Source: Syntrophobacteria bacterium (GTDB lineage: Bacteria; Desulfobacterota; Syntrophobacteria; BM002). From it: a stretch of DNA of 57,117 nt. The position numbers and the translations under genes were made by a program. The notes under the pieces were generated by a model. It was not told the DNA's origin. It searched no databases and worked only from the letters and a program-made list of their open reading frames with translations. Location: contig JBFFBS010000001.1 in assembly GCA_041560295.1 (NCBI GenBank), positions 1 through 57,117 on the forward strand, written 5' to 3'. Shown in pieces: positions 20,871-54,072 of this stretch. Every line of letters starts with the position of its first letter. The first letter of the stretch is position 1.

Positions 20871-20934
20871 GAACTCGGGCATACATTGAAATTTCTCTAT
20901 GCGATGGGGTGGATCACAACCAGGGGGATATGTA

Positions 20935-24019: not shown

Positions 24020-25849
24020 ATGAAAGTTCAACGGATCACCATTGCAATACTTGTCATCTTCTTAATCGGCATCGGTATCTTTGCCCAGACCCTGCACCAA
24101 CAGGAACAGCGGAGTAGAAGTCAAGACCTGCAGCACAGAGGAAATTACCTTGTCAGTCTGGTTGCGCTTCATCCGATGGAAAACTTTCTCGGCAGCAAGC
24201 GGGACTACATCGTCAAGACACTGGCTGAATACGTTACTTCAGATGGCTTGATCTATTGCATCGTCCAAGATCAAACTGGAAGTCCCCTCCTCTCCTTGGC
24301 ACACCGTGATGTTGTGGCCAAAATCCCCACTGAGGTGGAACAACGATCCCTGTATGTAAACGGGTTCATACAACAGACCTATAAGATGGTGGGAACGGAC
24401 CAGACCATAAGTGAATTTGCCAAACCCATTTTTGAAGGTGGACAGCGAAGTGGCACGGTGAGAATGGGTTTTGATCTCCCGCCCATATCAATGTTTTCTC
24501 TCGAGCGCATTAAGCTTATGGCCATAATGGCCTTTTTCGCATTTTCCATGGCGGTCCTGGTCTATTACGGGGTCACCCTGGCACTTCGACCTCTCCATGA
24601 AGTCAATCAAAACTTCAGAAACATCTGCATAGACTCAGTGCCTGTGTCTCCCGGTTCTTTCAGGAATGGCGGGGTTGGCGAAATCATAAAAGGCCTCGAG
24701 CAATCGGTGTTTCAACTCAAAGACAGATACGAGAAAATCCAGGCCGAAAATATCGATTTGACCACCAAATATGGTGTCATTTCATTCGAGAAACACAATG
24801 TCTTCAACATCCTGGATTCCATAAATTACGGGATCATTGTGACTGATATCCAGGATAATATAACTCACATCAACTCCTACATGCTGAATTTTCTCGACAA
24901 AAAACAGGATGAGGTGATCGATCACTCTTTAGGTGACGTACTCAGTCACGATCAAATAGAAGGATTTCTTTCACAGCAGGAGGCACTGAAGCAAAGTAGT
25001 GGCGCTCGTCATATTGAGGCCACATTTCCTGAACTTGCCTCTGGAGAGTCGTTTCTCGTCTCTTTGTCTTATTTGAGTGGGAGAGAGGAAGATGTCATTG
25101 GCAAGGTCATATCGTTTAAGAACATAACCAGTGAGAAATCAGCTGAAAATGCCAAGCATGAATTTATCACTCGTATCACTCACGAATTACTTACGCCCTT
25201 GACGACTATTAATTCATACAATGAGATGTTGATGGATGATGAAATAGACAACGTTGAGATGCAAAAGGAATTCTATAACACCATCAATGAAGAGACCAGT
25301 CGCTTGACGAGTCTCGTCAAGAACCTGCTCAACATTTCCAAGATTGAAATGGGCAGTCTAACCCTCCACAAAGGACTCGTCAAAAGTGATTGGCTTTTTG
25401 ACGATTGTCTGACCACCGTAGAGGGGACCGCCCAAAAGAAAAACATTACCATTGAAAGGAACGTGCCTGACAGCTTTCCAGCTCTATTCGCTGACAAAGA
25501 ACTCCTGAAGGTGGCAGTCATCAACATCCTGGGCAATGCAGTGAAATATACTCCTGAAAACGGGCACATTCAATTCATGCTCACCGAACAGGATGACTTC
25601 ATAATCTTCGAAGTCATCGACGATGGCTACGGCATTTCCAAGGAAGATCTCCCCCATATTTTCGACAAGTTCTATCGCTCGACAGATCCTCGTGTTACCG
25701 AACAGACCGGAAGTGGCCTGGGGCTTGCATTAACTTCGGAGATCGTTCGCCTCCACGGTGGAGAGATTGAGGTAAGCAGTAAGCCTGACGAGGGAAGTTA
25801 CTTCAAGATCAGGCTACCGAAGGAGGAATATTACCTTGGAAAACAATAA
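24020..25849 (+). CDS. Sensor histidine kinase (membrane-anchored, PAS-like, HisKA, HATPase_c)
   Basis: 609 aa with two TM segments, the H-box FITRITHELLTPLTTI, N-box NILGNAVKYTP, G1 DDGYGI and G2 GSGLGLAL. Confidence 0.92.
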   Translation: MKVQRITIAILVIFLIGIGIFAQTLHQQEQRSRSQDLQHRGNYLVSLVALHPMENFLGSKRDYIVKTLAEYVTSDGLIYCIVQDQTGSPLLSLAHRDVVAKIPTEVEQRSLYVNGFIQQTYKMVGTDQTISEFAKPIFEGGQRSGTVRMGFDLPPISMFSLERIKLMAIMAFFAFSMAVLVYYGVTLALRPLHEVNQNFRNICIDSVPVSPGSFRNGGVGEIIKGLEQSVFQLKDRYEKIQAENIDLTTKYGVISFEKHNVFNILDSINYGIIVTDIQDNITHINSYMLNFLDKKQDEVIDHSLGDVLSHDQIEGFLSQQEALKQSSGARHIEATFPELASGESFLVSLSYLSGREEDVIGKVISFKNITSEKSAENAKHEFITRITHELLTPLTTINSYNEMLMDDEIDNVEMQKEFYNTINEETSRLTSLVKNLLNISKIEMGSLTLHKGLVKSDWLFDDCLTTVEGTAQKKNITIERNVPDSFPALFADKELLKVAVINILGNAVKYTPENGHIQFMLTEQDDFIIFEVIDDGYGISKEDLPHIFDKFYRSTDPRVTEQTGSGLGLALTSEIVRLHGGEIEVSSKPDEGSYFKIRLPKEEYYLGKQ

Positions 25850-26213
25850 ACGGGTTCTGGTCATAGACGATGAAGCCCACATCAGGCGAGTGATCGAACT
25901 CAAATTCAAAAACCAGGGCTATCAAGTCATTACCGCCACAAATGGTGAGGAGGGGCTTGATCTCATCAAGAGCCAGCAACCAGATGTTGTTATCACCGAC
26001 ATCATGATGCCCAAGCTAGATGGCAAGGCTCTGTGTGAACGAGCAAACGAACTGAAGGAGAAAAGACCTTTTTTGACCATTGTCATGACATGTCGCATAT
26101 CTCCAACCGAGAAGGACTGGATAGAACAACTGACAGATACCGTATTTGTGGAAAAGCCTTTCAGCCTCCAGACAATTTTGAAATGCGTTGACCAATATTT
26201 TGGGGACCATTAA
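25836..26213 (+). CDS. Single-domain response regulator (CheY-like receiver)
   Basis: 125 aa with VLVIDDE...DVVITDIMMPKLDG...K and no output domain. The TTG start overlaps the kinase stop. Confidence 0.88.
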   Translation: MENNKRVLVIDDEAHIRRVIELKFKNQGYQVITATNGEEGLDLIKSQQPDVVITDIMMPKLDGKALCERANELKEKRPFLTIVMTCRISPTEKDWIEQLTDTVFVEKPFSLQTILKCVDQYFGDH

Positions 26214-26215
26214 CA

Positions 26216-27742
26216 ATGATAGATCTAGGCCAATCTAAGGAGTTTCTCTCGAGCCTGTCGAACGTCAGCCACCTGCATTTCCAGATTTGGGATGCCGATG
26301 AGGGATTGGTGTTTTCCTCAGGATCAGATAAGCCTGCTGAGCCAGCCTTTGAGGAACTCCAGGACTTTTCACTGCAGATTATAAGCAGCGGTGCATTCCA
26401 ACATATTCCACTTGAGTCCGGAGAAGGGCTGTTTGGTGTACCCCTCAGGAATGGGCAGGCAGTAGCCGGCTCCCTCATTGCCTTTGGTTCCAACTCTCAG
26501 CAAAAACCTCTGCTAGAAACCGCCAGGGCACCGCAACCGGGCCAGGCCGAAGAGATGGAGAAATTTCTCAGCCAGGTGGCGGAATTTGTGGAAGAAAAAC
26601 TAACCATCCAACAAGAGATGGAACAGATGGCGGAAGAGCTGACCGAGAACTTTGAACAGCTCTGTTTCTACTCCAAGATTGCCAGTCGAGTCAAAAGCAT
26701 AACGTTTTCGGGTGCCATGCTCCAAGAGCTCGTTGAAGAGCTTCTGGATACAATGCGCACCGACATGGCTTTTGCCAAACTGCCGGAGCGACCAGAATAC
26801 AACGCCCTGGTCTATACTCAGAAAATCCCTGAGAAGATCGGTGACTACGATGACTTCATCGATGTCCTCATAGACTCCATCCCGCTGGACTCACCTTCAT
26901 TAAAGGAAGACTACTTTATCGTTAACGATTCAAGGACAACCCCAGGATTCAGTGATCTTGCTCCGGATCCCTATCGTTTCCTCGCGGTAAAGATGAAACA
27001 CAACGGAAATTTCTACGGCTGGATGGGGCTGGTCTCATTCAATTTCAAAGAAATTTTCCGGCGAAGCGAACTTAGGCTGTTAGATTCGATGGCCGAGCAA
27101 ATCGCCGTGGTTATTACCAATTCAGATCTTTACCGTGACCTGGAACGGTTCGTCATCAACATGGTGAAATCACTGGTCTTCGCCATCGAGGCCAAGGACG
27201 ACTATACCCGTGGGCACTCTGAACGAGTTTGTCAGTATTCCCTCCTGATGGCAGACAGACTTGGTTTGGATGAAGAGCGGAAAAAAATACTCCAGTGGTC
27301 ATCTATTCTGCACGACAGTGGGAAAATTGGCATTCCCGAATCCATTTTGAATAAACCCTGGCGGTTGAAAGACGAGGAATATCAAATCATTAAGAACCAC
27401 CCCATAAAGGGCCACACCATCTTGGAACCCTTGGAGCAACTGGCAAGTTCACTTCCTGGCATGCTGCACCACCATGAGCGCTACGATGGTAAAGGGTACC
27501 CGCAGGGTTTAAAAGGCAAAAAAATTCCGCTGGAGGCCCGAATCATTGCCGTTGCCGACACCTTCGATGCCATCACTTCTAACCGGGCTTATCGCCCGGC
27601 AAAAGCTCCGGAAGAGGCCCTGGAAGAGATAGAAAAAGTGGCTGGAACCCAGTTGGATCCCGATTTGGTTAAAGTGTTCAAAGAGGTATTTACTCGAGAC
27701 CTTGTGCCGGAGCAGGGATGCAGCGTCGAAGAGCAAAGTTGA
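26216..27742 (+). CDS. HD-GYP domain protein (predicted c-di-GMP phosphodiesterase) with an N-terminal sensory/GAF-like region
   Basis: 508 aa with HSERV...LHDSGKIGIPESILNKP...HHERYDGKGYPQGL...DTFDAITSNRAYR. Confidence 0.9.
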   Translation: MIDLGQSKEFLSSLSNVSHLHFQIWDADEGLVFSSGSDKPAEPAFEELQDFSLQIISSGAFQHIPLESGEGLFGVPLRNGQAVAGSLIAFGSNSQQKPLLETARAPQPGQAEEMEKFLSQVAEFVEEKLTIQQEMEQMAEELTENFEQLCFYSKIASRVKSITFSGAMLQELVEELLDTMRTDMAFAKLPERPEYNALVYTQKIPEKIGDYDDFIDVLIDSIPLDSPSLKEDYFIVNDSRTTPGFSDLAPDPYRFLAVKMKHNGNFYGWMGLVSFNFKEIFRRSELRLLDSMAEQIAVVITNSDLYRDLERFVINMVKSLVFAIEAKDDYTRGHSERVCQYSLLMADRLGLDEERKKILQWSSILHDSGKIGIPESILNKPWRLKDEEYQIIKNHPIKGHTILEPLEQLASSLPGMLHHHERYDGKGYPQGLKGKKIPLEARIIAVADTFDAITSNRAYRPAKAPEEALEEIEKVAGTQLDPDLVKVFKEVFTRDLVPEQGCSVEEQS

Positions 27743-27746
27743 GAGC

Positions 27747-28094
27747 ATGACACCATCATCATCCGCAATTTCTATAGCGAAAGTCGGCACCAGGACGGTC
27801 CTTGCGCCCAGAGAGTCATTGACCTATGAAACCTGTGAAGAACTAGAAACCACCTTTGATGAGTGCCTCAATGACCAGAGGGCAGATATTATTTTGGACT
27901 GCAAGGATGTAACCTTCATGGACAGTGAAGCTCTTGAACTATTGGTACGAATGCATGATGAGCTAAGAAATCGCGGCAGCGTATTGAAAATAATTACCTT
28001 GAACGATGTCTGTCGCGACATATTTGTCGCAACCCGGCTCATACATTTGCATGTTTACGAAGATATCCACCAAGCCATCAGAAGTGAACGATGA
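27747..28094 (+). CDS. STAS domain protein (anti-sigma-factor-antagonist fold)
   Basis: About 115 aa with ILDCKDVTFMDSEALELLV...GSVLKIITLNDVCRDIF, a typical SpoIIAA/STAS pattern. Its stop overlaps the ATPase start (ATGA at 28091-28094). Confidence 0.8.
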   Translation: MTPSSSAISIAKVGTRTVLAPRESLTYETCEELETTFDECLNDQRADIILDCKDVTFMDSEALELLVRMHDELRNRGSVLKIITLNDVCRDIFVATRLIHLHVYEDIHQAIRSER

Positions 28095-29803
28095 AAAGCC
28101 CTTTTGTCCATAGAAGGAAAAAAATCGGTGAAATTTTGGTGGGCAAGGGTTTCATTACAGCCGACCAACTAACCGAGTTCCTCCGCACTCAGAAAGAGAG
28201 TTCCAAACCCCTCGGGCAACTCTTGCTTGAAGAGGAGATTCTTAGCCCAGAAGAATTGACCACTATCATCGGGGAACAGCTCGGCATCCCCCACATCTGG
28301 CTTCGCAAGGGTATGATTGACCCCAGGATCGTGCACGTCCTGCCCAAAGAAACGGCTTTACATTTTCAAGTTATCCCCATGTTTCGAGTCAACAGTGTGC
28401 TTACCTTGGCCACCTCTGACCCCCACGCTTTCTTTGTGTTTGACGAAGTGTCCAAAATTACCGGCCTCGAAGTTCAGCCGGTCCTTTGCCGCGCGGATGA
28501 TATCCTTGATGCCATCCAGGAGTGCTACCAGAAAGAAGTGAGCATCGACGATGTTTTGGCCCGAATGGACGAATCTGAAATTGAGGTGGTCAGTACCGCT
28601 TTTGAAAGGGAGATCAGCGAAATTGCCGAGATGGCTGAGGAAAGTCCGGTGGTTAACTGGACCAATATGGTCTTGTTGCGGGCCATCAGAGATGGGGCCA
28701 GTGACATCCATATCGAGCCACAAGCGGGCAAGTTCCAGGTTCGCCTCCGAATTGATGGTGTTCTGTACGAACTCATGTCTCCCAAGCTCGAGATGCACCC
28801 GGCGGTGGTCTCCCGCTTGAAAGTCATGGCCAATCTTGACATCGCAGAACGGCGTATACCCCAGGATGGCCGTATTCAGGTTCAAGTGGAAGGTCGTAAA
28901 GTCGATCTCCGCTTTTCTTCCATGCCGGGTATTCACGGTGAAAAAGTGGTCCTGCGAATCCTGGACAAGAGCAGGGCCATGCTGGATCTGAACACCCTGG
29001 GTTTTGACCCGGAGGTTCTGGAGCGATTTAAATTTCTGTTGAAGAAACCTCACGGGCTCATTGTAGTCTGCGGCCCCACAGGAAGCGGCAAGACCACTAC
29101 TTTGTATTCAGCCATGACCTTGCTCAATGCCTCTGACAAGAATCTCGTAACCATTGAAGACCCTGTGGAATATCAGTTAGATAGGATCAACCAAAACCAG
29201 GTGAAGCCCTCTATCGGCCTCTCCTTCGCCAAATTTTTGAAACATGCTCTCAGGCAGGACCCCGACATTATCATGGTGGGGGAGATTCGAGACCGTGAAA
29301 CTGCTGAAATTGCCATTCAAGCCTCACTCACTGGGCATCTGGTCCTGTCAACACTTCACACCAACGACAGTCCTAGTGCCATCACACGTCTTCTTGAGAT
29401 GGGTATCGAGCCCTATCTTATCTCTTCCTCGCTCTTGGCATCTCTGGCTCAGAGACTGGTACGGACAATTTGCCCTGAATGTGCAACTGACTATTTCCCC
29501 CCAAAGGAAGTATTGCAAGACCTGGGTTGCGATGGGGACAAACAGATACGATTGTCAAGAGGAAAAGGGTGTTCTGACTGTTACGATTCTGGTTTCAAGG
29601 GCCGCACCGGTATTTATGAGCTCTTTGAAATGGACACCGGGCTGCAATCTCTGATTCTGACCAATCCGACCATCGATACCCTCCAAGAATACCTCAGGAA
29701 AGACGGGCGGGGCACCTTGAATACTTTGGGCTATAAAAAAGTGTTAGAGCGTATCACCATCATAGAAGAGGTAAAACGGGTAACCTCGGTGGAGAGGGTT
29801 TAG
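28091..29803 (+). CDS. GspE/PilB/MshE-family secretion ATPase with an N-terminal tandem MshEN motif
   Basis: 570 aa with Walker A GPTGSGKTTT, Asp box, Walker B IIMVGEIRD, His box LSTLHTND, and tetracysteine CPEC...CSDC. The N-terminus reads KIGEILVGKGFITADQLTEFLRTQ-KESSK-PLGQLLLEEEILSPEELTTIIGEQ. Confidence 0.93.
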   Translation: MKSPFVHRRKKIGEILVGKGFITADQLTEFLRTQKESSKPLGQLLLEEEILSPEELTTIIGEQLGIPHIWLRKGMIDPRIVHVLPKETALHFQVIPMFRVNSVLTLATSDPHAFFVFDEVSKITGLEVQPVLCRADDILDAIQECYQKEVSIDDVLARMDESEIEVVSTAFEREISEIAEMAEESPVVNWTNMVLLRAIRDGASDIHIEPQAGKFQVRLRIDGVLYELMSPKLEMHPAVVSRLKVMANLDIAERRIPQDGRIQVQVEGRKVDLRFSSMPGIHGEKVVLRILDKSRAMLDLNTLGFDPEVLERFKFLLKKPHGLIVVCGPTGSGKTTTLYSAMTLLNASDKNLVTIEDPVEYQLDRINQNQVKPSIGLSFAKFLKHALRQDPDIIMVGEIRDRETAEIAIQASLTGHLVLSTLHTNDSPSAITRLLEMGIEPYLISSSLLASLAQRLVRTICPECATDYFPPKEVLQDLGCDGDKQIRLSRGKGCSDCYDSGFKGRTGIYELFEMDTGLQSLILTNPTIDTLQEYLRKDGRGTLNTLGYKKVLERITIIEEVKRVTSVERV

Positions 29804-29874: not shown

Positions 29875-31029
29875 ATGGCCATTAGTTATGAGCAACATAA
29901 GGAGGGCAGTCCCCTCCGGACTGCAAAGCGTTTGGGAGCAGTGGGGAGCCGTATCCCCAAGCTGCGGTTGGATATGCTGAAGCTGCCTGGCCGCAGGATT
30001 AAAGCCAAGGAGATAATTTTCTTCACTTCCCAGCTATCGTTGATGCTGGAGGTGGGTACACCCCTTACAAGCTCACTAACTGCAATAGAAAATCAGACCA
30101 AGAACCCGGCCTTCAAAGAGGTGATCCAGGCAATGGGTAAGGATATTGAAGAAGGCCTTCAGCTCTCAGACGCTATGAGGCGTCACCCTCAGGTATTCAA
30201 TAATGTCTTCATCAGTATGATCAAAGCCGGAGAGACCGGCGGGTTCTTGCAGAAGATTCTGGATCGGCTGGCGGAAATGCAGGAAAAACGTCAGGCCCTC
30301 ATTGCCCAGTTGAGGTCCACCCTGACTTATCCTGCTATCCTGTGCCTTGTCGGGCTCCTGGTGGTTATTTTTGTTCTGGTGGGAGTCCTCCCCAAATTCG
30401 CCACATTTTTCGCTGGCAAAGAAAGCATCCTGCCCATTACCACCCGCATTCTTATGGCCATGAGTCATTCGCTGCGAATTTATTGGTGGGTTTACCTGAT
30501 CTCCTTTGCAGGGATCGTCTTGGTCCTTAAGCTCTGGAAAGAGAGTGAGCCCGGCCAAGCACTGATAGACCGGTTTTGTGTGAGCGCTCCGATGGTGGCC
30601 AGGCTGTACAACAAGATCTATACCTGCCAACTTTTGAGAACACTGGGACATCTGATGAGCAGTCAAGTTCCTTTACTAGAAGCCCTGGAGGTAACCCGGG
30701 CCACCATAAAAAATCGACACTTTAGCCGCTTTATAACTCAAATCATGGATCACGTGGAGAAAGGGGGGCGATTCGCCCAACCATTCACTACCTATCCCTA
30801 CATCCTGGACTCGGTGAAGCAAATGGTAGCCACTGGAGAGGAAGTGGGAAATCTACCAACGGTGATGCTCCGCTTAGCCGGATTTTACGATACGGAGGTG
30901 GATCGGGAACTCAAGAATATTGCCTCTTTGATCGAGCCCATTGCCTTGATGTTATTGGGTGGGGTGGTGGGCGTTATCGTTGCCTCAGTGATCTTGCCCT
31001 TGTTCAGGCTAGCGCATGCGGTGCATTAG
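29875..31029 (+). CDS. GspF/PilC-family inner-membrane platform protein
   Basis: 384 aa with two T2SSF repeats (FTSQLSLMLEVGTPL... and LLRTLGHLMSSQVPLLEAL...) and three TM segments. Confidence 0.92.
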   Translation: MAISYEQHKEGSPLRTAKRLGAVGSRIPKLRLDMLKLPGRRIKAKEIIFFTSQLSLMLEVGTPLTSSLTAIENQTKNPAFKEVIQAMGKDIEEGLQLSDAMRRHPQVFNNVFISMIKAGETGGFLQKILDRLAEMQEKRQALIAQLRSTLTYPAILCLVGLLVVIFVLVGVLPKFATFFAGKESILPITTRILMAMSHSLRIYWWVYLISFAGIVLVLKLWKESEPGQALIDRFCVSAPMVARLYNKIYTCQLLRTLGHLMSSQVPLLEALEVTRATIKNRHFSRFITQIMDHVEKGGRFAQPFTTYPYILDSVKQMVATGEEVGNLPTVMLRLAGFYDTEVDRELKNIASLIEPIALMLLGGVVGVIVASVILPLFRLAHAVH

Positions 31030-31102: not shown

Positions 31103-31651
31103 ATGTTTAGGCAGATTGGGATTCAAAACCTTAAGAACCAAGAGGGATTCACCTTGATTGAGATGCTCGTCGTGGTGATTATTCTGGGGATCCTGGCCAT
31201 GATCATTGTTCCACAGATTTCCGTATCCACGGACGATGCCAGGCTGAACTCTCTCCAGACGAACCTCAACAGCATACGAAGCGCTATCGAGGTTTACGCT
31301 GCCCAGCATGCAAACCGATACCCGGGTACCTACTCAGAGGTAGACGGCACAACCGCGGTAGTGGATGATGCTGCATCCAGGGCAGCATTTCTGGCCCAGC
31401 TTACCCGGTTCACGGACATCAATGGCATGGTAAATGGCACCAAAACTGCCACCTTCAAGTATGGTCCTTACCTGAAAACAGGATCATTGCCGCTGAACCC
31501 TTTCAATGAAGATGGCGATGTTGTCTGTGATTTCGATCAAGGTGACATCACTGCGGCGAGGGCCCCAAGCGGTGGCACTCAAGGCTGGCAATACTTCGCA
31601 CCCATTGGAGTCTTCTTCGCCAATGATAGTGCTGCGCACGCAGCTCTGTAA
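31103..31651 (+). CDS. Major pseudopilin / type IV pilin-like protein (GspG position)
   Basis: The prepilin motif is QEG-FTLIEMLVVVIILGILAMIIVPQ with Glu+5, followed by the GspG-like helix DDARLNSLQTNLNSIRSAIEVY. Confidence 0.85.
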   Translation: MFRQIGIQNLKNQEGFTLIEMLVVVIILGILAMIIVPQISVSTDDARLNSLQTNLNSIRSAIEVYAAQHANRYPGTYSEVDGTTAVVDDAASRAAFLAQLTRFTDINGMVNGTKTATFKYGPYLKTGSLPLNPFNEDGDVVCDFDQGDITAARAPSGGTQGWQYFAPIGVFFANDSAAHAAL

Positions 31652-31679: not shown

Positions 31680-32216
31680 TTGGTGTTAGCCACCTATGAG
31701 AATAAGGGCTTCAGCCTCCTCGATTTGCTGATTGTCATTATGATCCTCGGGATTCTGGGTGTGTTCGTGGCACCCCAGCTCCATTCGACGCTAAACGAGG
31801 CCAGGCTGAACGAGGCCACTGGAGAGCTGGTCTCCGGGCTTCACTACGCCCAGAGCCTGGCTGTAACTCATCAGCGGCCTTTTGGCCTCACGGCGAATGT
31901 GGCCGAGAATTGGTTCAGGGTCTTTGACCACAAGTACAGAACTGATGCGAGCCCACACCACAGCGAGATCCCACCAGTGGACGGCTATGGTATTGTACTC
32001 AACCCCGTGGACAAGAAATGGTACGTGCTAGATTTTGACACCACGCATCCGTACGAAGGGGTAAGCATCGATTCGGCACCTGCCAGTGGTGGCATGATCT
32101 CATTTTATCCAGATGGTCATTCCTCCTCTGCCGATAGTGTCTTTGTTTTGGTCTTTGGAGGAGAACAGAGGACTATTACGGTGGACGGCACCACTGGCAG
32201 AATCAGGGTCAATTGA
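31680..32216 (+). CDS. Minor pseudopilin (GspH/FimT-like position)
   Basis: NKG-FSLLDLLIVIMILGILGVFVAPQ has Asp at +5. The region ATGELVSGLHYAQSLAV is typical of GspH/FimT. The start is TTG or GTG. Confidence 0.75.
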   Translation: MVLATYENKGFSLLDLLIVIMILGILGVFVAPQLHSTLNEARLNEATGELVSGLHYAQSLAVTHQRPFGLTANVAENWFRVFDHKYRTDASPHHSEIPPVDGYGIVLNPVDKKWYVLDFDTTHPYEGVSIDSAPASGGMISFYPDGHSSSADSVFVLVFGGEQRTITVDGTTGRIRVN

Positions 32217-32220
32217 GGCG

Positions 32221-32652
32221 ATGAGAAGGATTAATTTGACCAAAAATCTCATGCTATTTGACAATAAGGGTTTCACCTTTCTCGAGATTATCCTCGTTGT
32301 ACTGATTCTTGCCATTGCCATCGTGCCCATGGTCCGCGCCTTCTCGCCCGGCACCTTATCAGCCAATACCGAAGAAGAGACCACGGTTTTTACCAATCAA
32401 GCCAGGGGCACCCTCAACCGGGTAATGGCCCTTGACTTCGATACGCTCAACAGCAACCAGGGGGCAACCGTTGATCTGGCAGGCCTTTTTGGCGGTGGAG
32501 CCGAGGCAGCCAAGGAATCTTTCACTTTCAAGGGAGAGAACCACACCCCAACTGTGGCCATTACCGATGCTAGCAGCGGCGCTGGCGGCCTGCTTGAACT
32601 GACAGTGAAAATATCTCATATTCAACTCAGTACTCGCAAAGCACAATATTGA
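32221..32652 (+). CDS. Minor pseudopilin (GspI position)
   Basis: NKG-FTFLEIILVVLILAIAIVPMV. It is small (143 aa), as expected for GspI-like proteins. The ATG at 32221 follows the upstream stop. Confidence 0.75.
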   Translation: MRRINLTKNLMLFDNKGFTFLEIILVVLILAIAIVPMVRAFSPGTLSANTEEETTVFTNQARGTLNRVMALDFDTLNSNQGATVDLAGLFGGGAEAAKESFTFKGENHTPTVAITDASSGAGGLLELTVKISHIQLSTRKAQY

Positions 32653-32763: not shown

Positions 32764-33375
32764 ATGTTGCCCATGCTCGACAACTCTGGCTTTACCCTTC
32801 TCGAGCTTCTCATCAGCATGGTTATTCTCTCTATCATCATGATAGGCCTCCATCAGGCCATGGATACCGCCCTTTCAGCCCATCGTCAGACAACAGACAG
32901 GCAAGAACTACTCGCCCAGGCCCGTTATGCCATGGAACGCATGGTGATGTTTGTTCAGGAAACCGACCAGATAGAAATACCCGCTGCCGATACCCTTGTA
33001 CTCAACGAGCGCGTACTGGACACCTACGATAACGACACCCATATCTACAGAGCTGAAGGTGACGGCTATCTGGATGCTGACAACGATCACGATGGTGTGG
33101 TCAACGAGGGCGGGGTAAATGATGATCCTGTAGATCCAATCAGTTACAGTCTGGACAAAACCGACCCCAACAACTGGAAGCTTCAGGAACAAATGCCCGA
33201 CTACTCCACCTCAACCCTGGATGATTCTCTGGCCACAAAAGTGCTCTGTGAGCATGTTACTACCTTTTCATGCGGACTGTTAGCCCCGAACCTGGTTGAA
33301 ATCCAGTTAACCGTAAACAACGGCGAGCATGAGATACATCTGAAAACTCGAGTCAACGCCATATATATGGAGTAA
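32764..33375 (+). CDS. Minor pseudopilin (GspJ/PilW-like position) with an Asp-rich loop
   Basis: NSG-FTLLELLISMVILSIIMIGL is followed by QARYAMERM, a GspJ/PilW-like helix. It carries the insert DADNDHDGVVNEGGVNDDPVD. The track ORF starts earlier, at 32722. Confidence 0.75.
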   Translation: MLPMLDNSGFTLLELLISMVILSIIMIGLHQAMDTALSAHRQTTDRQELLAQARYAMERMVMFVQETDQIEIPAADTLVLNERVLDTYDNDTHIYRAEGDGYLDADNDHDGVVNEGGVNDDPVDPISYSLDKTDPNNWKLQEQMPDYSTSTLDDSLATKVLCEHVTTFSCGLLAPNLVEIQLTVNNGEHEIHLKTRVNAIYME

Positions 33376-33408: not shown

Positions 33409-35910
33409 ATGAAAAAAGACAAAATTCTTCATAGAGACGACCGAGGCTACATCCTCCTGATGGTGGTCGTCATGATGCTGGTCATGGCTGTCATGGCCTT
33501 TGGCATGAACCGGCGTGCGGGGATGCAGGCCAAAATGGCAACCAACCAAACCCGGAGCAGCCAAACTCATCTTGGCCAGATAGCGGCTCTGGAAGATGCT
33601 GCCTGGCTCCTGAACCGCGATCCTGGGTGGCGAACAAGCGGTGCAGGTGAGGATTACACTTTCAGCGGTATCAAGTACAAGCGCTTCGTACTGGATGCCT
33701 CCGGCTACAGTGATGTGGTCACCGTTACGGTAACCGCTCCGGGGGGATTAAAGAAGCTTAGCTCAAGCTTCCGCGTGATTACCCCAACTGTCACTTACTA
33801 TCTGATTGCTGACACCGATAATCACTCCATCAGAAGGGTGGATACCTCCACAGGGGTAATCACCACATTTGCCGGCACCGGTTCATCCGGCTATTCAGGA
33901 AACGGCGGACCGGCCATTAGTGCCAATCTCAATAAACCAAGAGGGGTTTTTGCTGATGGAGCGGGAAATATTTATATAGCCGACACTGATAACGATTGCA
34001 TTCGAAAAGTAGACGCATCAGAAACCATTACCACGGTAGCAGGTATTGGAGGCAGTCACGACTTTAGCGGCGACGGTGGGGACGCGACCAACGCCAAACT
34101 GGACAAACCGAGAGGTGTTGCTGCTGATTATGCGGGAAACATCTATATTGCTGATACGAACAATCACGTCATTAGAAAGGTGGATGCCACCACCGGGATT
34201 ATCGATACCGTGGCGGGCATAGGTAAACAAAACGGCTACACTGGAGACGGCGGACTGGCAACCGCGGCAAAATTAGATAAACCCCGAGGCGTTTGGGTGG
34301 ATGGTTCCGGAAATATCTATATTGCTGACACAGAGAACAACCGAATCAGAATGATGGATGCCACAACGCAGATTATCACCACCATCGCTGGAAACGGTGG
34401 CAGTGGCTACACTGGAGACAATGGGCCAGCTACCGCTGCTGAACTGCGCAAACCAAATGGGGTCGTTGTTGATGTCTCTGGCAACATTTACATCGCCGAC
34501 ACCGATAATAACGTGATCAGAATGGTGGATGCCACAACGCAGTTTATCACCACCGTTGCGGGAACCGGCTCAGGAGGATATTCGGGAGATGATGTGCCAG
34601 CCACCAGTACCGCATTGCGTAAACCGCGCGGTCTGTGGCTGGATGAATCCGGCAATATCCTCATCGCAGACACTGATAATCACCGAGCCAGGTTGGTCTA
34701 TGACGATGGTGGCACTCTGATGATAACCACCGTCGCGGGAGACGGTAGCGCGGGTTATTCAGGAGACAACGGAGCGGCAACCAGCGCTTCCCTCAACAAA
34801 CCTCACGGTGTGTGCATATATGAGACTTTGCCACCTGCATACCTCGTCATTGCTGACCCTTCAAATCACCGGATTAGAGAGGTGAATCTTACCACCGGGA
34901 TCATTACCAAGGTCGCCGGGACTTTTTGGTCTGGCTACAACGGAGATAATATTGACGCCACATGGGCCAGACTGTATTACCCCTTTGGGGTGCACGTGGA
35001 TTCGTCCCACAACACCTACATTGCCGATACCTACAATCACCGCATCAGAAAGGTGGATGGTAAGACCGGGATCATAACCACCGTGGCCGGTACCGGCTCC
35101 AAAGGATTCTCGGGTGACGGTGGGCCGGCAACCAGCGCCAGGCTGAGGTACCCCTTCAACCTGTTCCTGGATACGGTAGGAAATATATATATTGCAGACA
35201 CCTACAATTACCGGATCAGAAAAGTTGACGCCGCAACCAAGATCATAACCACCGTGGTGGGAGACGGCTCGGCCAAATTTAAAGGCGATGGCGGCCTGGC
35301 CACTGATGCCAGCATCATGAAGTCTTATGATGTGGCGGTGGATAGCGCGGGCAACATCTTCATTGCCGACACCCACAGTCACGCGATTAGAAAAGTGGAC
35401 GCCACTACCGGTATCATCAACACCGTGGTGGGCCAAGGTGGCAGTGCCGGTTTTTCAGGCGATGGTGGGCTGGCCACCGACGCCAAGCTCAATTCACCCA
35501 CTGGCGTCTATGTGGATGCTGCCGGAAATATCTACGTGGTAGACACCAAAAATGATCTGATCAGAAAGGTGGACGCTACCACAAATATCATCAACAGTGT
35601 TGCCGGAAACGGCACCCCCGGCTTCTCGGGTGACGGAGGCCTAGCCACCCTCGCTCAACTCGATTACCCTGAAGCCGCATGGGTTGATAGCGGTGGCAAC
35701 ATGTTTGTTGTGGATACAGAGAACTGCCGCATCAGAAGGGTGGACGGTACGACCGGGATCATCACCACCGTGGCGGGCACGACCTATTGCGGCTATAACG
35801 GCAACAACCAGCCGGCCACCGACGCTGCCCTCTACTATCCCTCCGAGAACTCTGTCTATGAGCCTTCGTCTCTGGAAAGGTTGCCTGAAATCTATCGAAC
35901 CACTAACTGA
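33409..35910 (+). CDS. GspK/PilX-position minor pseudopilin fused to 12 NHL repeats (predicted double six-bladed beta-propeller)
   Basis: The N-terminus is RG-YILLMVVVMMLVMAVMAFGMNRRAGMQAKMATNQ, with no Glu+5 (as in GspK/PilX) and a PilX_N-like helix. There follow 12 copies of ...KP.GV.VD..GNIYIADT.N..IRKVD..TGIITTVAG.G..G.SGDGG.AT.A.L. Confidence 0.85.
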   Translation: MKKDKILHRDDRGYILLMVVVMMLVMAVMAFGMNRRAGMQAKMATNQTRSSQTHLGQIAALEDAAWLLNRDPGWRTSGAGEDYTFSGIKYKRFVLDASGYSDVVTVTVTAPGGLKKLSSSFRVITPTVTYYLIADTDNHSIRRVDTSTGVITTFAGTGSSGYSGNGGPAISANLNKPRGVFADGAGNIYIADTDNDCIRKVDASETITTVAGIGGSHDFSGDGGDATNAKLDKPRGVAADYAGNIYIADTNNHVIRKVDATTGIIDTVAGIGKQNGYTGDGGLATAAKLDKPRGVWVDGSGNIYIADTENNRIRMMDATTQIITTIAGNGGSGYTGDNGPATAAELRKPNGVVVDVSGNIYIADTDNNVIRMVDATTQFITTVAGTGSGGYSGDDVPATSTALRKPRGLWLDESGNILIADTDNHRARLVYDDGGTLMITTVAGDGSAGYSGDNGAATSASLNKPHGVCIYETLPPAYLVIADPSNHRIREVNLTTGIITKVAGTFWSGYNGDNIDATWARLYYPFGVHVDSSHNTYIADTYNHRIRKVDGKTGIITTVAGTGSKGFSGDGGPATSARLRYPFNLFLDTVGNIYIADTYNYRIRKVDAATKIITTVVGDGSAKFKGDGGLATDASIMKSYDVAVDSAGNIFIADTHSHAIRKVDATTGIINTVVGQGGSAGFSGDGGLATDAKLNSPTGVYVDAAGNIYVVDTKNDLIRKVDATTNIINSVAGNGTPGFSGDGGLATLAQLDYPEAAWVDSGGNMFVVDTENCRIRRVDGTTGIITTVAGTTYCGYNGNNQPATDAALYYPSENSVYEPSSLERLPEIYRTTN

Positions 35911-35923
35911 AAGTGAAAAATAA

Positions 35924-35997
35924 GGTGTCAGGTGTCAGCAAAGAAAAACAAACAACTGAAACCTGAACACTGAAAGCTGAAACCTCAGTCTTTGTGA
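35924..35997. repeat. Heptamer-arm hairpin (ggtgtca/ctgaaac family), copy 1
   Basis: ggtgtcaggtgtcagc...ctgaaacctgaacactgaaagctgaaacctcagtctttgtga. It shares 15-nt and 21-nt identical blocks with 40804..40881. Confidence 0.8.
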
Positions 35998-36072
35998 AAT
36001 AAGCACCCACTTTACTACCCCAGGCACTTACTGCTGCATCTCTTGTCACTTACCTATTTGAAACAATCTGCG

Positions 36073-36087
36073 TGGCATGAGCCTTGC
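36073..36087 (+). promoter_or_regulatory. Sigma-54 type -24/-12 promoter upstream of pilM
   Basis: TGGCAT-gagcc-TTGCa has consensus spacing. It lies about 330 nt upstream of the pilM ATG, and REP-like hairpins sit in the leader. Confidence 0.55.
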
Positions 36088-36297
36088 ACATGGAATGAAT
36101 CGAGTGGGTTAGATTCGGAATCGCTCAGTCACAACATAGCCTTTCTGTCCCGCTCCAGGTGTTTAAGCAATTGGTCGCTCGTTAACAAGGTCTGAACTGA
36201 TTTGAAACGAAGGGCAGAGCCGAGAATAAATCCCCTTCACCCTTTTGAATCACTGCTTCGCTGGATCTGCCTATGGGTGGAATTTAACAGGGCGAGT

Positions 36298-36377
36298 CAC
36301 CCTTTAAAAAGGGGAGATATTTTGAATTGATTACATTGAGTTCCCCCCTTTGATAAAGGGGGGTTAGGGGGGATTTT
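36298..36377. repeat. GC-rich REP-like palindromes (cccccctttNataaagggggg type)
   Basis: caccctttaaaaagggg and ttcccccctttgataaaggggggttaggggggatttt. The same motif occurs at 56157..56250. Confidence 0.7.
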
Positions 36378-36414
36378 ATAAGGCTTGTAACTACCATAAC
36401 CTTTAGAGAACAGT

Positions 36415-37527
36415 ATGCGTAACTTCAACTCCATATTCCCTGTCGGTATCGACATAGGCCGCCGCAACGTCTACGCTGCTCAACTGCAAGAAACCAAGCA
36501 GGGTCTGGTGGTCAGGGGGTTGGTGCATCAAGAATACCAGAATGAGACTGATGGAATTCTTGCAGCAAGAGATGTTCTGGTACCCTTGCTAAAGGATATT
36601 ATCGGTGATAAACGACTGAAGGGTAGACGAGTAGTTGTTAACTTTCCCGCTCAATATCTCCTCAGCTTTCCTTTAAACTTCCAGGTTGGCAAAGAAGAAA
36701 CTGTAGAGACAGCCATCCTCCGTCATTCGAGGCAGTATATTACCTTTCCCCTGGAAGAAGCCATTATCGATTACCCATCGCTCGCACCCACAGGTGATGA
36801 CAATAAATTTAGGGCGAGCATCATCGCGGTTCGCAGAGAACATGTGCAAGACTACCTCTCCATGCTCAGAAAGGCTGGTTTGACCGTTGAAGTTGTTGAT
36901 TTCGCTGTTTCCACTTTGGTCCGCCTTCATAGGTATGCTCACACGACCATCCAGAATCCCATAATCCTGTGCAATATCGGCGACACCCAAAGCCAACTTT
37001 CAATAGTAACCCAGGACTCTATTCTGGTTCAGCGCCAGATTCCCTGGGGAGTACACATGCTTCGGAAGAATCTGCGGGCCAACCTTGAACTCTCCGGTGA
37101 CGGGGACAAGACCAAGGTCCTTCTCAAAGAATATGGGCTCTTCTACGAAGATTGTCGAGACTGCAGTATCGACGAGAATCCGGAACCGACAACCGATACT
37201 GATGAAGCGAGAACCATGTACCGCGCCATCTACCAGATCATAAACCCACAGATTGAAGAACTGGTACATGAACTTCATAAAGTGATCGGCTATGGAAGAT
37301 CTGAGCAGCAGGATGCGATTTTCGATGGAATCTACATATACGGCCAGGGAACCTTCATAAACCATCTCGACCGCTACCTGGAAAAGAGACTCAACATCCA
37401 CACCAGGCTGATGAATCCCCTGACCAAGGTGGCCTTGTCTGACGACAACGGCTCTGTTGATATATCGGAAGGTGGACCTTTCAGCCTTGCTCTGGGTCTG
37501 GCTCTGCGGAAAGTATCATGGCTCTAA
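36415..37527 (+). CDS. pilM: PilM-like actin-fold assembly protein
   Basis: 370 aa with GIDIGRRNVYAAQL at the N-terminus (ASKHA phosphate-1 motif). It immediately precedes the PilN/O-like genes, with an overlapping stop/start. Confidence 0.8.
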   Translation: MRNFNSIFPVGIDIGRRNVYAAQLQETKQGLVVRGLVHQEYQNETDGILAARDVLVPLLKDIIGDKRLKGRRVVVNFPAQYLLSFPLNFQVGKEETVETAILRHSRQYITFPLEEAIIDYPSLAPTGDDNKFRASIIAVRREHVQDYLSMLRKAGLTVEVVDFAVSTLVRLHRYAHTTIQNPIILCNIGDTQSQLSIVTQDSILVQRQIPWGVHMLRKNLRANLELSGDGDKTKVLLKEYGLFYEDCRDCSIDENPEPTTDTDEARTMYRAIYQIINPQIEELVHELHKVIGYGRSEQQDAIFDGIYIYGQGTFINHLDRYLEKRLNIHTRLMNPLTKVALSDDNGSVDISEGGPFSLALGLALRKVSWL

Positions 37528-38096
37528 GAGAAATAAATCTTACTCCAAGTGAGATACTGGCTCGCCGCGAGTTCCTCCGGCATCTCGGTTTTTGGGCAGG
37601 GTGTCTGCTCATCTCTCTTGCTTTGATCTGGGGTTTTTACTTTTTGCAGGAACACGCCCTCTCAGCCAAGAAGCGCAAAGTGGCCGAATTGAAAAGAATG
37701 CACCTTAACTTGGGTACAAAAATCGATGAAATCAAGCTAATGCGAGCAGAATTGAATACACTCCGCCAAAAACAATCTGGACTGGAAGATATAACCTTAA
37801 ATAAACCCTATTCCAGAATATTCGCCGAATTATCTGATCTCATCAATGAACACACCTGGCTCACGCAACTGAACATCGATAGTGGTTTGGAGGAGAAAAC
37901 CGCGGCCAGTTTGAAACTGACCGGGTTTTCTTTTTCAGCAGAAGAACTTGGGAATTTTCTGGACCAGTTGTCGAGTGAACCCTTGTTCAAGACAGTAGTT
38001 TTGCAACAGGCTCGCGAGTATGAAACGGTGCAATTGAGCAAGAACACACACGCGCCAATTCGGTTAATCCAATTCAATATCGAGTGTAATATTTAG
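37518..38096 (+). CDS. pilN: PilN-like bitopic assembly protein
   Basis: 192 aa with an INL-type N-terminus (REINLTPSEILARRE), one TM segment, a coiled coil and a ferredoxin-like C-terminus. Operon position supports the call. Confidence 0.75.
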   Translation: MALREINLTPSEILARREFLRHLGFWAGCLLISLALIWGFYFLQEHALSAKKRKVAELKRMHLNLGTKIDEIKLMRAELNTLRQKQSGLEDITLNKPYSRIFAELSDLINEHTWLTQLNIDSGLEEKTAASLKLTGFSFSAEELGNFLDQLSSEPLFKTVVLQQAREYETVQLSKNTHAPIRLIQFNIECNI

Positions 38097-38101
38097 TAAA
38101 T

Positions 38102-38641
38102 ATGATCAATATCAATATTAAAAGATTGGATCAAATATGTATTGCCCTCGTAATCATTGTATCGTTGATATGTGGTTACTGGGTTATGAATCAAACTATC
38201 AAGCAAAGGTGGCAATTACGACAGGAAAACGACATTATATCCAAGACCTTAATTGAATTGAAAACGGCAGAAGAAAATTTCGAAAATTTAAATACCCTCT
38301 TGGCTGATACGAAAAGAGAATTAGAATTTCTGGATAAACGGATTCCGGAATCGGTCAATATTGGTCAGGTTCTGAAAGAAATAGATTACTTAATGAAAGA
38401 TAGAAAAATTGTATTGTTAAGCTTGCAACCACTACCACCGGTAGAGGAGAAACTGTATGTCAAGATTCCAATACGTCTGATGTTTGAGGGCTCTTTTGCC
38501 AGCATCTATCACCTGCTTTATGATCTTGAGACCATGAATCGCATGTTAGTGGCTGAAAATATGAGTATTTCCAGGCGTAACCTCGACGAAAAATGCCACG
38601 CTGAAATAACGGCCAGTGTTTATCAACGCTTGAAGGAGTAA
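38102..38641 (+). CDS. pilO: PilO-like assembly protein
   Basis: 179 aa with one TM segment, a coiled coil, and YVKIPIRLMFEGSFASIYHLLYDLETMNRML, which is typical of PilO. Confidence 0.75.
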   Translation: MININIKRLDQICIALVIIVSLICGYWVMNQTIKQRWQLRQENDIISKTLIELKTAEENFENLNTLLADTKRELEFLDKRIPESVNIGQVLKEIDYLMKDRKIVLLSLQPLPPVEEKLYVKIPIRLMFEGSFASIYHLLYDLETMNRMLVAENMSISRRNLDEKCHAEITASVYQRLKE

Positions 38642-38645
38642 GCAA

Positions 38646-39167
38646 GTGGATGACGGTGGTTCCAGGCAAAGCAAGAGCACCGGGCGAATCAAGATTTATC
38701 TGATTGTTGGCCTGGCTCTCGTACTGGCGGCATTGGTTTACCGTTACCTGCATGCAAGGGCTGCCCAGAATAGGAGCATCTCTCCGCCTCCTGCCACTGC
38801 CACAGTGTCCGAGATGCCTGAACTTCCTGATCTCTACATGGGAAGACAGCAAGAGACGCAGGTTGCACGGCCAAATATCAGAGAACTCCGAAGGTTGTTT
38901 GTGCGTGATATTTTTGCTCCTGCTAAATCTCTGCCAAAAGCCGGGCGCCCAACCATGAAGGGCCAACCTGCACAACGACAGGTGAAATCCCTGAAACTCA
39001 AGGGTGTTATTATCGGTGGGCAACACTCCATCGCCATTATTAATGACAAATTCGTTCGCACGGGTGAACGGATCGATGGATATAGAGTAGTAAGAATTGC
39101 GGAAAAAGAAGTTTTGTTGAAGTCGGGTAATAAAACCATCAAATTAAGGCTGGTTAGCAATGATTAA
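38646..39167 (+). CDS. PilP/GspC-like secretin-associated protein
   Basis: 173 aa with a GTG start, one TM segment, and the C-terminal beta domain LKLKGVIIGGQHSIAIINDKFVRTGERIDGYRVVRIAEKEVLL. Confidence 0.6.
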   Translation: MDDGGSRQSKSTGRIKIYLIVGLALVLAALVYRYLHARAAQNRSISPPPATATVSEMPELPDLYMGRQQETQVARPNIRELRRLFVRDIFAPAKSLPKAGRPTMKGQPAQRQVKSLKLKGVIIGGQHSIAIINDKFVRTGERIDGYRVVRIAEKEVLLKSGNKTIKLRLVSND

Positions 39168-40881: not shown

Positions 40882-41042
40882 TTTGGAATTTCTATTTTTC
40901 GAATACTCCCGTACTCCAAAACCTCTGGACATCTTTACCGGTAAAACCATTGAACTTTTAGCTGACCCTGAGGAACAGGTTTTCTGTGACTAAATAGAGG
41001 AAAAGTTCCCCACATTGACTCTGGGATCGACGCGCTTTGAAT

Positions 41043-41951
41043 ATGGATATTGGAAACCGAGCTCAACAATCTGTTCTCTCTGTTGATGACGACGCGGAAC
41101 TGCGAGAACTGCTCCACGAATTGATTGGTCAGATGGGGCACGCCAGTGTGGTAGCAGCTGATGGCCTTGATGCCCTGGAGAAGATGGAGGAGCAACAGTT
41201 CGACATTGTCATTACCGATATCAATATGCCGCGTTTGAACGGAGTAGGGTTGATCAAGAGGATTGCCTCTGATTACACCGACACCGATGTCATTGCCATT
41301 ACCGGGTACCAAACGGAATATAACTACACCGACATTATTGCCCTTGGTGCGAGTGACTTCATCTCCAAACCAATTAACATAGACGAGTTCGAGGCGAAGA
41401 TAAAACGGGTTGTACGCGAACGAAATATGCGTTTTGAGCTGAGACGACTTTCCACCTGCGATGCCCTCACAGGACTCTACAATCGCAGACATCTGGACGA
41501 AAATCTACCGAACGAGGCTATCCGCGCTTCCCGACAGCATTATGATCTTTATCTGCTCCTCATCGACATCGACAACTTCAAGGTGTACAACGACAAATAC
41601 GGCCACCAGCAGGGGGACAGGTTACTCAAGGAACTGGCCCAGATAATAACACGGAGCATCCGTGAGAATGTAGACTCGGGTTACCGCTATGGCGGTGATG
41701 AGTTTGCGGCCACCATTCTGCACGCTAACCCACAGCAGGCATTGATGGTGGCGGAGAGGCTTCGAGCCGAATACAACGCAAAAAACCTGGTGCCGACCAG
41801 CCTAAGCATCGGCATAGCCAAATTGAAGAATTCCTACAGCACGCTGGAAGAAGACCTGGATGGACTGATCAGAGAGGCCGACCAGGCCCTCTATCTGGCA
41901 AAAAATAACGGCGGCGACCAGAACGTAATGCTAGAGCTCGGCTCGTCGTAA
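41043..41951 (+). CDS. Response regulator with a GGDEF diguanylate cyclase output
   Basis: The receiver has VLSVDDD...DIVITDINMPRLNG. The GGDEF domain has LTGLYNRRHL...RYGGDEFAATI and a complete GGDEF active site. Confidence 0.92.
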   Translation: MDIGNRAQQSVLSVDDDAELRELLHELIGQMGHASVVAADGLDALEKMEEQQFDIVITDINMPRLNGVGLIKRIASDYTDTDVIAITGYQTEYNYTDIIALGASDFISKPINIDEFEAKIKRVVRERNMRFELRRLSTCDALTGLYNRRHLDENLPNEAIRASRQHYDLYLLLIDIDNFKVYNDKYGHQQGDRLLKELAQIITRSIRENVDSGYRYGGDEFAATILHANPQQALMVAERLRAEYNAKNLVPTSLSIGIAKLKNSYSTLEEDLDGLIREADQALYLAKNNGGDQNVMLELGSS

Positions 41952-50864: not shown

Positions 50865-51449
50865 ATGAAAAACAGAGAACGAGGAATTACGCTTAATGAA
50901 CTCATAATCTCTCTGGCTGTGGTCGGCGTACTGGCCGCTGTGGGTCTGCCAAAATTGGTGAAAATAGTACCCAACTACCGTCTCACCGGCGCTGCCCGCT
51001 CACTGGTGGTTCAAATTCATAAGGCTAAACTTACGGCCATCCGCCAGGGCACCGTCTACTATCTCGACTTTGATTTTGACGCTGACGGCAATCTAGAGTC
51101 AGAAGACTGTGTTCTTTGGGGGGATCGCAACGGAAATCGACGCAAGGAACTTCTGGAGCAGAGTCAAATGATACTGGATTTAAAGACTTTTCCTGGTGTG
51201 CATCTTCACTCCTATCCTTATGAGCAAGGCGGACCGAAGCGCGGGCCTAACAAAACCAAGATCAATGCAGGTGGTGGTGACGGAGTTAGCTTCAGTCAGA
51301 ATCGAATCAAATTCAATCCTGACGGCACATGCAGTACCGGCACTGTTTACCTCCACAACAGCAACGGCCGGACCTTTGCCATTCGTATTCGCTTTAACGG
51401 CCTGACCCAGCTATGGATGCATGATGGCCAAGCTTGGAAACGATGGTAA
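50865..51449 (+). CDS. GspH/FimT-family minor pilin
   Basis: RG-ITLNELIISLAVVGVLAAVGLP has Glu+5, followed by the GspH-like helix TGAARSLVVQIHKAKLTAI. Confidence 0.8.
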   Translation: MKNRERGITLNELIISLAVVGVLAAVGLPKLVKIVPNYRLTGAARSLVVQIHKAKLTAIRQGTVYYLDFDFDADGNLESEDCVLWGDRNGNRRKELLEQSQMILDLKTFPGVHLHSYPYEQGGPKRGPNKTKINAGGGDGVSFSQNRIKFNPDGTCSTGTVYLHNSNGRTFAIRIRFNGLTQLWMHDGQAWKRW

Positions 51450-51489
51450 TTACAAGCCAGCATTGAGGTGACAGCGAAAAGCCAGTCCA

Positions 51490-52061: not shown

Positions 52062-52082
52062 GAAAGAGCGCGAGGCTCTCTT

Positions 52083-53894: not shown

Positions 53895-53969
53895 TTACAT
53901 CGACTCCTGAGGAAAGAATCCAAGCCCTGACGGGACATTGGGCGGCTTTCCTTTATAGGAAAGTCTGCT

Positions 53970-54072
53970 GGAGTAATGGAGTGGTGGAGTAGTGGAGTAA
54001 TGAAAGAACTCTTTCAAGTTGAAATTCGAGCTTTAAGTTTTTCCAACACTCCAATACTCCAGTACTCCAAAC
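53970..54072. repeat. Heptamer-arm hairpin (ggagtaa family)
   Basis: Left arm ggagtaatggagtggtggagtagtggagtaatg; right arm caacactccaatactccagtactccaaac. Confidence 0.8.

Follow-up and report, generated by a model that had tools for sequence, protein, structure and literature searches.

The DNA window analysed here comprises 57,117 nucleotides (contig JBFFBS010000001.1 of the Syntrophobacteria bacterium assembly GCA_041560295.1) and carries a type 4 filament operon whose fifth pilin gene, at 33409..35910 on the + strand, encodes a pilin module fused to 12 NHL repeats. This gene probably encodes a modular cap minor pilin of the K/PilX type that belongs to a type 4 filament machine and bears two NHL propellers as a binding head at the tip, and its product is best read as combining the roles of PilK and PilY1 in one chain. 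The open reading frame (ORF) starts with ATG and codes for 833 amino acids (aa) followed by a stop codon. An alternative in-frame TTG start upstream at 33382 is possible, but the ATG was preferred because it is the start used in orthologues and in the public gene call (P0010, 833 aa). A misassembly or gene-fusion artefact was ruled out, as dozens of independent full-length orthologues were found.

The N-terminus of the protein reads MKKDKILHRDDRG↓YILLMVVVMMLVMAVMAFGMNRRAGMQAKMATNQ, where the arrow marks the predicted cleavage by prepilin peptidase (context DDRG↓YILLM, continuing YILLMVVV). The first-pass annotation of this DNA, made from the sequence alone, had described a class III signal-like N-terminus without the Glu at position +5, and this description was confirmed. 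Residue +5 after the Gly is Met, and among the 143 family members in which a cleavage motif could be recognised not one had Glu or Asp at this position; 142 of them had Tyr or Phe at +1, the residue preceding the cleavage Gly (-2) was mostly Arg or Lys and the median leader was 13 aa long. Gly13 (-1) was invariant in a 30-sequence family alignment. AlphaFold2 predicted a helix of 59 residues (aa 12-70) in the full-length model and a helix at aa 9-70 in a module-only model (predicted local distance difference test score, pLDDT, 78). The helix was followed by a sheet with strands at aa 81-85, 88-96, 103-109 and 116-123 (pLDDT 82-87 in the module-only model). One long helix followed by a four-stranded sheet argues that this N-terminus is not a plain signal anchor.

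Profile searches placed the helix close to those of GspK and PilX, as had been proposed. Positions 2-61 of the NCBIfam T2SS_GspK model (NF037980) aligned to aa 12-71 of the window protein with an E-value of 1.2e-5. The GspK N-terminus (first 60 residues of the NCBIfam model) was matched by 25/30 diverse family N-termini with a best E of 3.6e-8, and PilX_N was matched at E<1 by 22/30 family N-termini (best E 1.5e-6); for the window protein itself both matches were below the cutoffs. One relative, P0082, bears a precomputed PF14341 hit. The idea that the protein is not a canonical GspK also held, as the T2SSK alpha-domain was absent both by hidden Markov model (HMM) search, where Pfam T2SSK gave nothing at E up to 0.1, and from the AlphaFold2 models. 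When the module-only model was compared by Foldseek to the Protein Data Bank (PDB), the highest-probability matches were GspI-type minor pseudopilins (XcpV 5bw0_H, prob 0.96, TMt 0.60; EpsI 3cfi_G, prob 0.97), a likeness of predicted structure that is supportive but not significant. A profile search of the PDB with the N-module gave nothing significant, the best match being the N-terminus of geopilin (E 0.16). The architecture of the protein and its cap-type character are well supported.

The same segment could also be an uncleaved signal anchor. The product would then be a bitopic inner-membrane protein that never enters a filament and whose periplasmic propellers act as a structural or sensory accessory. 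The protein has no N_methyl match and no Glu5, and the membrane helix has a low pLDDT in the full model, all of which would suit such an anchor. However, the R/K-G↓Y/F motif is conserved family-wide at a fixed distance from the hydrophobic segment, the helix runs for ~59 residues and then into a small sheet as in pilins, the HMM similarity is specific to GspK and PilX N-termini and the gene occupies the cap-pilin slot of every operon examined. We consider an uncleaved anchor very unlikely.

Behind the pilin module the chain continues as 12 repeat units with motif starts at aa 133, 190, 247, 305, 362, 419, 481, 538, 595, 652, 710 and 767, which gives a spacing of 57-62 aa. The NHL repeats begin at aa 127, directly behind the pilin strand at aa 116-123, leaving a short link between the modules. 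Pfam NHL matched the protein with an E of 1.1e-50 and 167.6 bits (cutoff 20) and TEN_NHL with an E of 3.6e-66. The earlier count of 12 very regular units was reproduced with a profile made from the units, which gave 12 matches spanning aa 120-809, but the strict repeat motif on which the count had been based was exact in only 10 of them; unit 4 (ending in ..RMM) and unit 10 (S for N) were each off by one residue. The AlphaFold2 model of the full-length protein (mean pLDDT 87) showed the pilin sheet and then 12 four-stranded blades, six per propeller. The pLDDT of the blades was >85, with most 10-residue blocks >90 and none <77. Foldseek matched this region to single six-bladed NHL propellers (SOQ1 lumenal domain 7djj, TMt 0.81; Pizza6 design 6i39, TMt 0.89) and to tandem-propeller proteins (teneurin-like 9ifo, E 9e-31; LRP6; LRP2), and a sequence search of the PDB agreed with these propeller matches. 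The model and the Foldseek matches thus bear out the suggestion of two six-bladed propellers, and the 12 repeats are predicted to form two closed six-bladed NHL propellers with an approximate boundary between them. The most divergent units were 1, 7 and 12, in line with what the opening and closing blades of two separate propellers should show, and repeat 7 was the single most divergent unit, consistent with the second propeller starting there.

Identity between units was 33-70% in protein (mean 52%) and 51-70% in DNA (mean 60%). A DNA period of about 171 bp had been suggested for the repeats but it was not detectable, as Tandem Repeats Finder reported no 171-bp array in the NHL gene. On the basis of this missing array and of the DNA identity between units we regard the NHL repeats as old, and a recent expansion of the repeats was ruled out on the same two grounds. 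Across 47 aligned homologues (all but one with 62-88% identity) the mean identity was 0.79 for propeller 2 and 0.61 for propeller 1, a difference in conservation that hints at separate roles. Orthology between propellers was not clear, as the single propeller of 6-repeat relatives matched propellers 1 and 2 about equally.

Orthologues of the protein carry database names such as 'streptogramin lyase' and 'sugar lactone lactonase YvrE', and weak Pfam SGL and Phytase-like matches were seen in relatives. These would fit an NHL region that is an enzyme of the lactonase or lyase type, tethered to the envelope or exported by the pilin module. Such names, however, are what automated annotation gives to generic six-bladed propellers. 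The strong matches were to NHL and teneurin-type NHL repeats, and the best structural matches were non-enzymatic interaction domains (teneurin-like, SOQ1 lumenal, NHLRC2 and Pizza designs), making an enzymatic head highly improbable.

The same fusion was found in related genomes, as a conserved family with 110 N-module clusters and seven syntenic operons. More than 60 full-length orthologues of ~830 aa were recovered at 62-89% identity, and these were numerous in metagenomes and in 'Deltaproteobacteria bacterium' metagenome-assembled genomes (MAGs). An exhaustive search with an N-module-only profile against 1.84 billion representatives gave the 110 clusters (50% identity) at E up to 0.001 and 72 at E up to 1e-10. 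A 5.8-billion-protein collection queried with a diverse N-module alignment returned only nine close fragments, which were already known. Members of the family fell into size classes of ~450-510 aa with 5-7 repeats, ~760-830 aa with 11-12 repeats and 1200-1330 aa with 16-18 repeats, the last group with an extra insert of ~170 aa. Four members of 1325-1331 aa (P0082, P0026, P0089 and P0097) have 18 repeats, the size of three propellers, and in the 18-repeat forms the insert follows the pilin helix region and precedes the first NHL repeat. In more distant relatives the N-module is joined to CBM96/DNRLRE, disaggregatase-repeat or LamG modules where the NHL repeats would be, so that one carrier bears different heads.

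A scan of GTDB species representatives with a six-sequence alignment found five loci in Desulfobacterales or Desulfobacteraceae MAGs, including the Olavius-associated 'Delta 1' symbiont (gutless worm). When all window proteins were used as tblastn queries, the gene order from response regulator to secretin was identical in each of these GTDB loci, and L001 and the P0082 locus likewise showed this order. The NHL pilin gene occupied the fifth pilin slot in 7/7 related operons (loci L001-L006 and the P0082 locus), and the upstream regulatory genes were the same set in the same order in all seven. This slot holds a short form of ~500 aa in L004 and L006 and a long form of 1327 aa in P0082. The proposed link to pilins also stood up to the possibility that homologues lie apart from pseudopilin genes, as they were beside such genes in all seven related operons, with one orphan homologue, P0121. 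In L001 (10001-12467, GCA_003359175.1) the orthologue was split into several frames, with gene calls of 102 aa and 335 aa; assembly errors may have introduced frameshifts here, or the gene may be a pseudogene. P0121 itself is 775 aa long with a pilin-type N-terminus, lies at 4438-6765 of locus L008 (GCA_030688615.1, a Desulfobacterales MAG) and is followed by a PEP-CTERM domain protein.

The gene had been called the fifth pseudopilin of its operon and the neighbouring genes agree with this call. The four pilins preceding it (starting at 31103, 31680, 32221 and 32764) each gave a Pfam match to the N-terminal methylation motif and have Glu or Asp at +5. The first of them has N-terminal similarity to the geopilin, MshA and GspG chains of the PDB. 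The ATPase encoded upstream matched the NF053729 c-di-GMP (cyclic di-GMP) motif with 51.9 bits (cutoff 38), and HD-GYP and GGDEF genes lie on either side of the filament operon (Table 1).

These genes could instead make a type II secretion system (T2SS) with a short periplasmic pseudopilus, the propellers being an enlarged piston head that loads exoproteins or engages the secretin, with no surface adhesin. The G-H-I-J-K gene order, the N-terminal matches of GspG, GspH and GspK type and the lack of a retraction ATPase in the operon are what such a system would have, and the HIJK complex of the T2SS contacts secreted effectors directly (PMC10191384). Other features fit it poorly. The inner-membrane parts are PilM/N/O/P and not GspL/M/C, and the ATPase has an MshEN c-di-GMP domain, which is named for the MshE ATPase of the MSHA pilus. 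Every pilin match to T2SS models was below cutoff and restricted to the N-terminal helix, and the carrier has relatives with CBM96 and LamG heads, for which external ligands are the better fit. A secretion system of this kind is in our view rather unlikely.

For a cap pilin with a propeller head the following course can be proposed. Prepilin peptidase would cut behind Gly13, and the pilin module, with its helix, small sheet and no Glu5, would join the minor pilins H, I and J, whose genes lie directly 5' of it. H-I-J and the cap pilin would then form the priming complex for filament growth, and since the filament would grow from this complex the cap subunit would end at the distal tip. The propellers, fused to the last pilin strand, would travel through the secretin and be displayed as a binding head of ~75 kDa, which would bind a ligand. 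Extension would be driven by the MshE-type c-di-GMP-binding ATPase, and because this ATPase binds c-di-GMP the display of the head is probably gated by c-di-GMP. The tip location and the adhesive or capture role that had been suggested for the protein are what we infer from this arrangement.

Several points weigh against a displayed cap pilin. The tandem propeller would have to pass a secretin of 510 aa, and the scan of window ORFs turned up no gene for a prepilin peptidase. As a sequence the operon would fit a surface-exposed filament or a short periplasmic pseudopilus alike. To our knowledge no ligand is known for bacterial NHL propellers of this kind. P0121 shares the N-module, yet no pilin or machine genes lie nearby on its 8-kb contig. 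At the N-terminus, the window protein scored 25.1 bits against the whole GspK model, for which the curated cutoff is 130, and 12.5 bits (E 0.15) against Pfam PilX_N (PF14341), for which the gathering cutoff is 25.5. Pfam N_methyl gave no match to the window protein, and the Foldseek E-values of the pilin module were ~0.2 and non-significant.

Modular pilins have been described in S. sanguinis, with a vWA module on PilB and a lectin module on PilC (Raynaud et al. 2021, PMC8179133). Dataset S1 of that study holds one pilin with three NHL repeats, and NHL repeats are found in N-terminal modules of PilY1 proteins in its Dataset S2. The window protein resembles these pilins in having a small pilin module, a very short link and a bulky module that is unspecific to pilus biology, and a tip location and a ligand-binding role are predicted for both. 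It differs in that the carrier is a Glu5-less cap subunit of the K/PilX type, in that the head consists of complete propellers in tandem (one, two or three in relatives) and in that the host is a diderm of the Desulfobacterales with a secretin. The family would be missed by the survey of PMC8179133 because the IPR012902/N_methyl signature used there is unmatched in it.

In reviewed systems a tip complex of minor pilins is capped by a Glu5-less subunit and filaments grow from tip to base (PMC10191384). Like GspK/XcpX, the window protein is encoded in fifth place behind the G, H, I and J genes, starts with a prepilin leader whose -1 residue is Gly, lacks Glu5, has a similar N-terminal helix and carries a large extra domain on a pilin scaffold. 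In GspK, as far as the work of Korotkov and Hol (2008) is cited in PMC10191384, the alpha-helical domain is inserted in the pilin sheet, whereas here the extra module is C-terminal and all-beta. The two also differ in length, with 307 for the NCBIfam model of GspK as compared to 833 aa here. As it failed two defining tests for GspK, the whole-model score and the alpha-domain, the window protein should not be filed as GspK; it occupies the GspK position and probably does the same priming job.

The PilK/PilX and PilC/PilY1 proteins of type 4a pili likewise place a beta-propeller on a K-type cap pilin at the tip (PMC7541494; bioRxiv 10.64898/2026.09.18.752573). PilY1 is a protein apart and not a pilin; it is exported by Sec, has a propeller of its own (IPR008707) and is attached non-covalently through a 12-residue C-terminal plug (bioRxiv 10.64898/2026.09.18.752573), whereas here NHL-type propellers are joined to the cap pilin by a covalent link. 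No PilY1 family was among the Pfam matches of the window protein, and the resemblance to the PilC/PilY1 tip adhesins is functional only. Known NHL propellers (PknD sensor domain 1rwi, Pizza, SOQ1 7djj, teneurin-like 9ifo) share the repeat family and the fold with the window protein, but none of them sits on a pilin module and their ligands differ, giving no direct clue to the ligand here.

The C-terminal tail of the protein, ..SSLERLPEIYRTTN, is conserved in the family. The pattern [LI]-[EK]-x-[LV]-x-x-[ILV]-Y was present within the last 8 residues of 92 of the 110 family members of at least 440 aa, across 6- and 12-repeat forms. Examples are ..LERLPEIY.. and, in relatives, ..LKxVKELY, and the carriers include P0133, P0151 and P0138 at their C-termini. 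The tail was missing from all 33 NHL proteins outside the family in the homologue set that had yielded the full-length orthologues, and the 16-18-repeat forms end in GG.G[IV][VF].RP in its place. One speculative idea, which we hold to be unlikely, is that the tail folds back and adds a strand to the protein's own pilin sheet as an intramolecular version of the 12-residue plug of PilC/PilY1. If so, the propellers would be closed into a loop on the cap pilin, and the family would be a natural cis-fusion of PilK with a PilY1-like adhesin, which would bear on the origin of the two-protein type 4a tip.

In the literature searched we found no paper that combines NHL repeats with PilX or describes the family. 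The NHL cap-pilin family is thus undescribed in this literature, but it is a variant of the known modular-pilin design and no new principle. Type 4 filaments gain functions mostly through display at the tip, and here the cap subunit itself would carry one to three complete propellers. This would add K-type carriers that lack Glu5 to the known modular pilins, a kind of carrier that signature-based surveys miss. The protein would also be a single-chain equivalent of the PilK-PilY1 pair. Its operon is strictly conserved and c-di-GMP-linked and belongs to Desulfobacterales of the sulfate-reducer type, and the protein would offer a tractable case for how very bulky heads cross a secretin and for what marine sediment bacteria and symbionts grasp.

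The positions of the pilin gene, its parts and the surrounding filament genes are collected in Table 1.

Table 1. Positions in the window of the NHL pilin gene, its parts and neighbouring filament genes. An arrow marks the predicted cleavage site; L001-L006 are related operons.
Feature	Position	Strand	Evidence or remarks
Histidine kinase, response regulator, HD-GYP-type phosphodiesterase, STAS protein	24020..28094	+	Pfam
Extension ATPase (GspE/PilB family), N-terminal MshEN c-di-GMP-binding domain	28091..29803	+	TIGR02538, TIGR02533, E ~1e-176
Platform protein (GspF/PilC family)	29875..31029	+	TIGR02120 GspF, E 4.8e-90
Major (pseudo)pilin, GspG-like, G↓FTLIE	31103..31651	+	Pfam N_methyl; TIGR01710 GspG N-terminus, E 9e-14
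GspH-like minor pilin, G↓FSLLD	31680..32216	+	Pfam GspH, E 2.2e-6; N_methyl
Third pilin (I position), G↓FTFLE	32221..32652	+	Pfam N_methyl, TIGR02532; position kept in L001-L006
Fourth pilin (J position), G↓FTLLE	32764..33375	+	N_methyl, E 5e-8; weak N-terminal TIGR01711 GspJ, E 1.7e-4
Fifth pilin gene, NHL fusion, G↓YILLM	33409..35910	+	
Prepilin-type leader, aa 1-13, MKKDKILHRDDRG	33409..33447	+	Predicted prepilin-peptidase cleavage after Gly13
Pilin alpha1 helix, aa 14-70	33448..33618	+	Hydrophobic N-terminal half, then conserved LNRRAGMQ.KMA.NQ; Met at +5
Small globular part of pilin module, aa 71-125	33619..33783	+	Predicted four-stranded antiparallel sheet; conserved P.WRT...GE.Y.F.G..Y
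Predicted NHL propeller 1, repeats 1-6, ~aa 126-466	33784..34806	+	Pfam NHL/TEN_NHL, AlphaFold2, Foldseek
Predicted NHL propeller 2, repeats 7-12 and closing strand, ~aa 467-820	34807..35868	+	Pfam, AlphaFold2, Foldseek
Conserved C-terminal tail, aa 821-833, and stop codon	35869..35910	+	
PilM, PilN, PilO, PilP/GspC-like (inner-membrane alignment complex)	36415..39167	+	Pfam PilM_2, PilN, PilO; weak T2SSC
Secretin, 510 aa	39160..40692	+	Pfam Secretin, E 2e-41; Secretin_N, STN
Response regulator with GGDEF diguanylate cyclase domain, 3' of secretin	41037..41951	+	GGDEF, E 1e-39; Response_reg, E 6e-27
GspH/FimT-like pilin of second filament set	50865-51449		
PilB-type ATPase with MshEN domain, second filament set	52083-53894	-	
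Further pilins of second filament set	54688-55206 and 56119-56718		
PilW-family minor pilin, second filament set	55218-56063		

A gap of 504 bp (35911-36414) separates the NHL gene from pilM, and relatives have a gap of ~300-460 bp at the equivalent place. When this gap was scanned, no convincing ORF and no promoter-like site were found in it. It contains four copies of the 7-bp repeat AACTGAA at 35954-35982 and weak terminator-like hairpins at 36300-36372. Just 5' of the histidine kinase gene of the operon lies an ORF of 823 aa (20899-23370, +) for which Pfam gave no match at E up to 1e-5.

Housekeeping genes make up the remainder of the window (DnaX, PyrF, PriA, LigA, RecN-like), indicating that the window is chromosomal DNA. 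Two tRNA genes of ~91-93 nt (4511-4601 and 4721-4813, - strand; Rfam tRNA, 55-56 bits) adjoin dnaX. A second set of type 4 filament genes lies at 50865-56718 and reaches near the end of the window.

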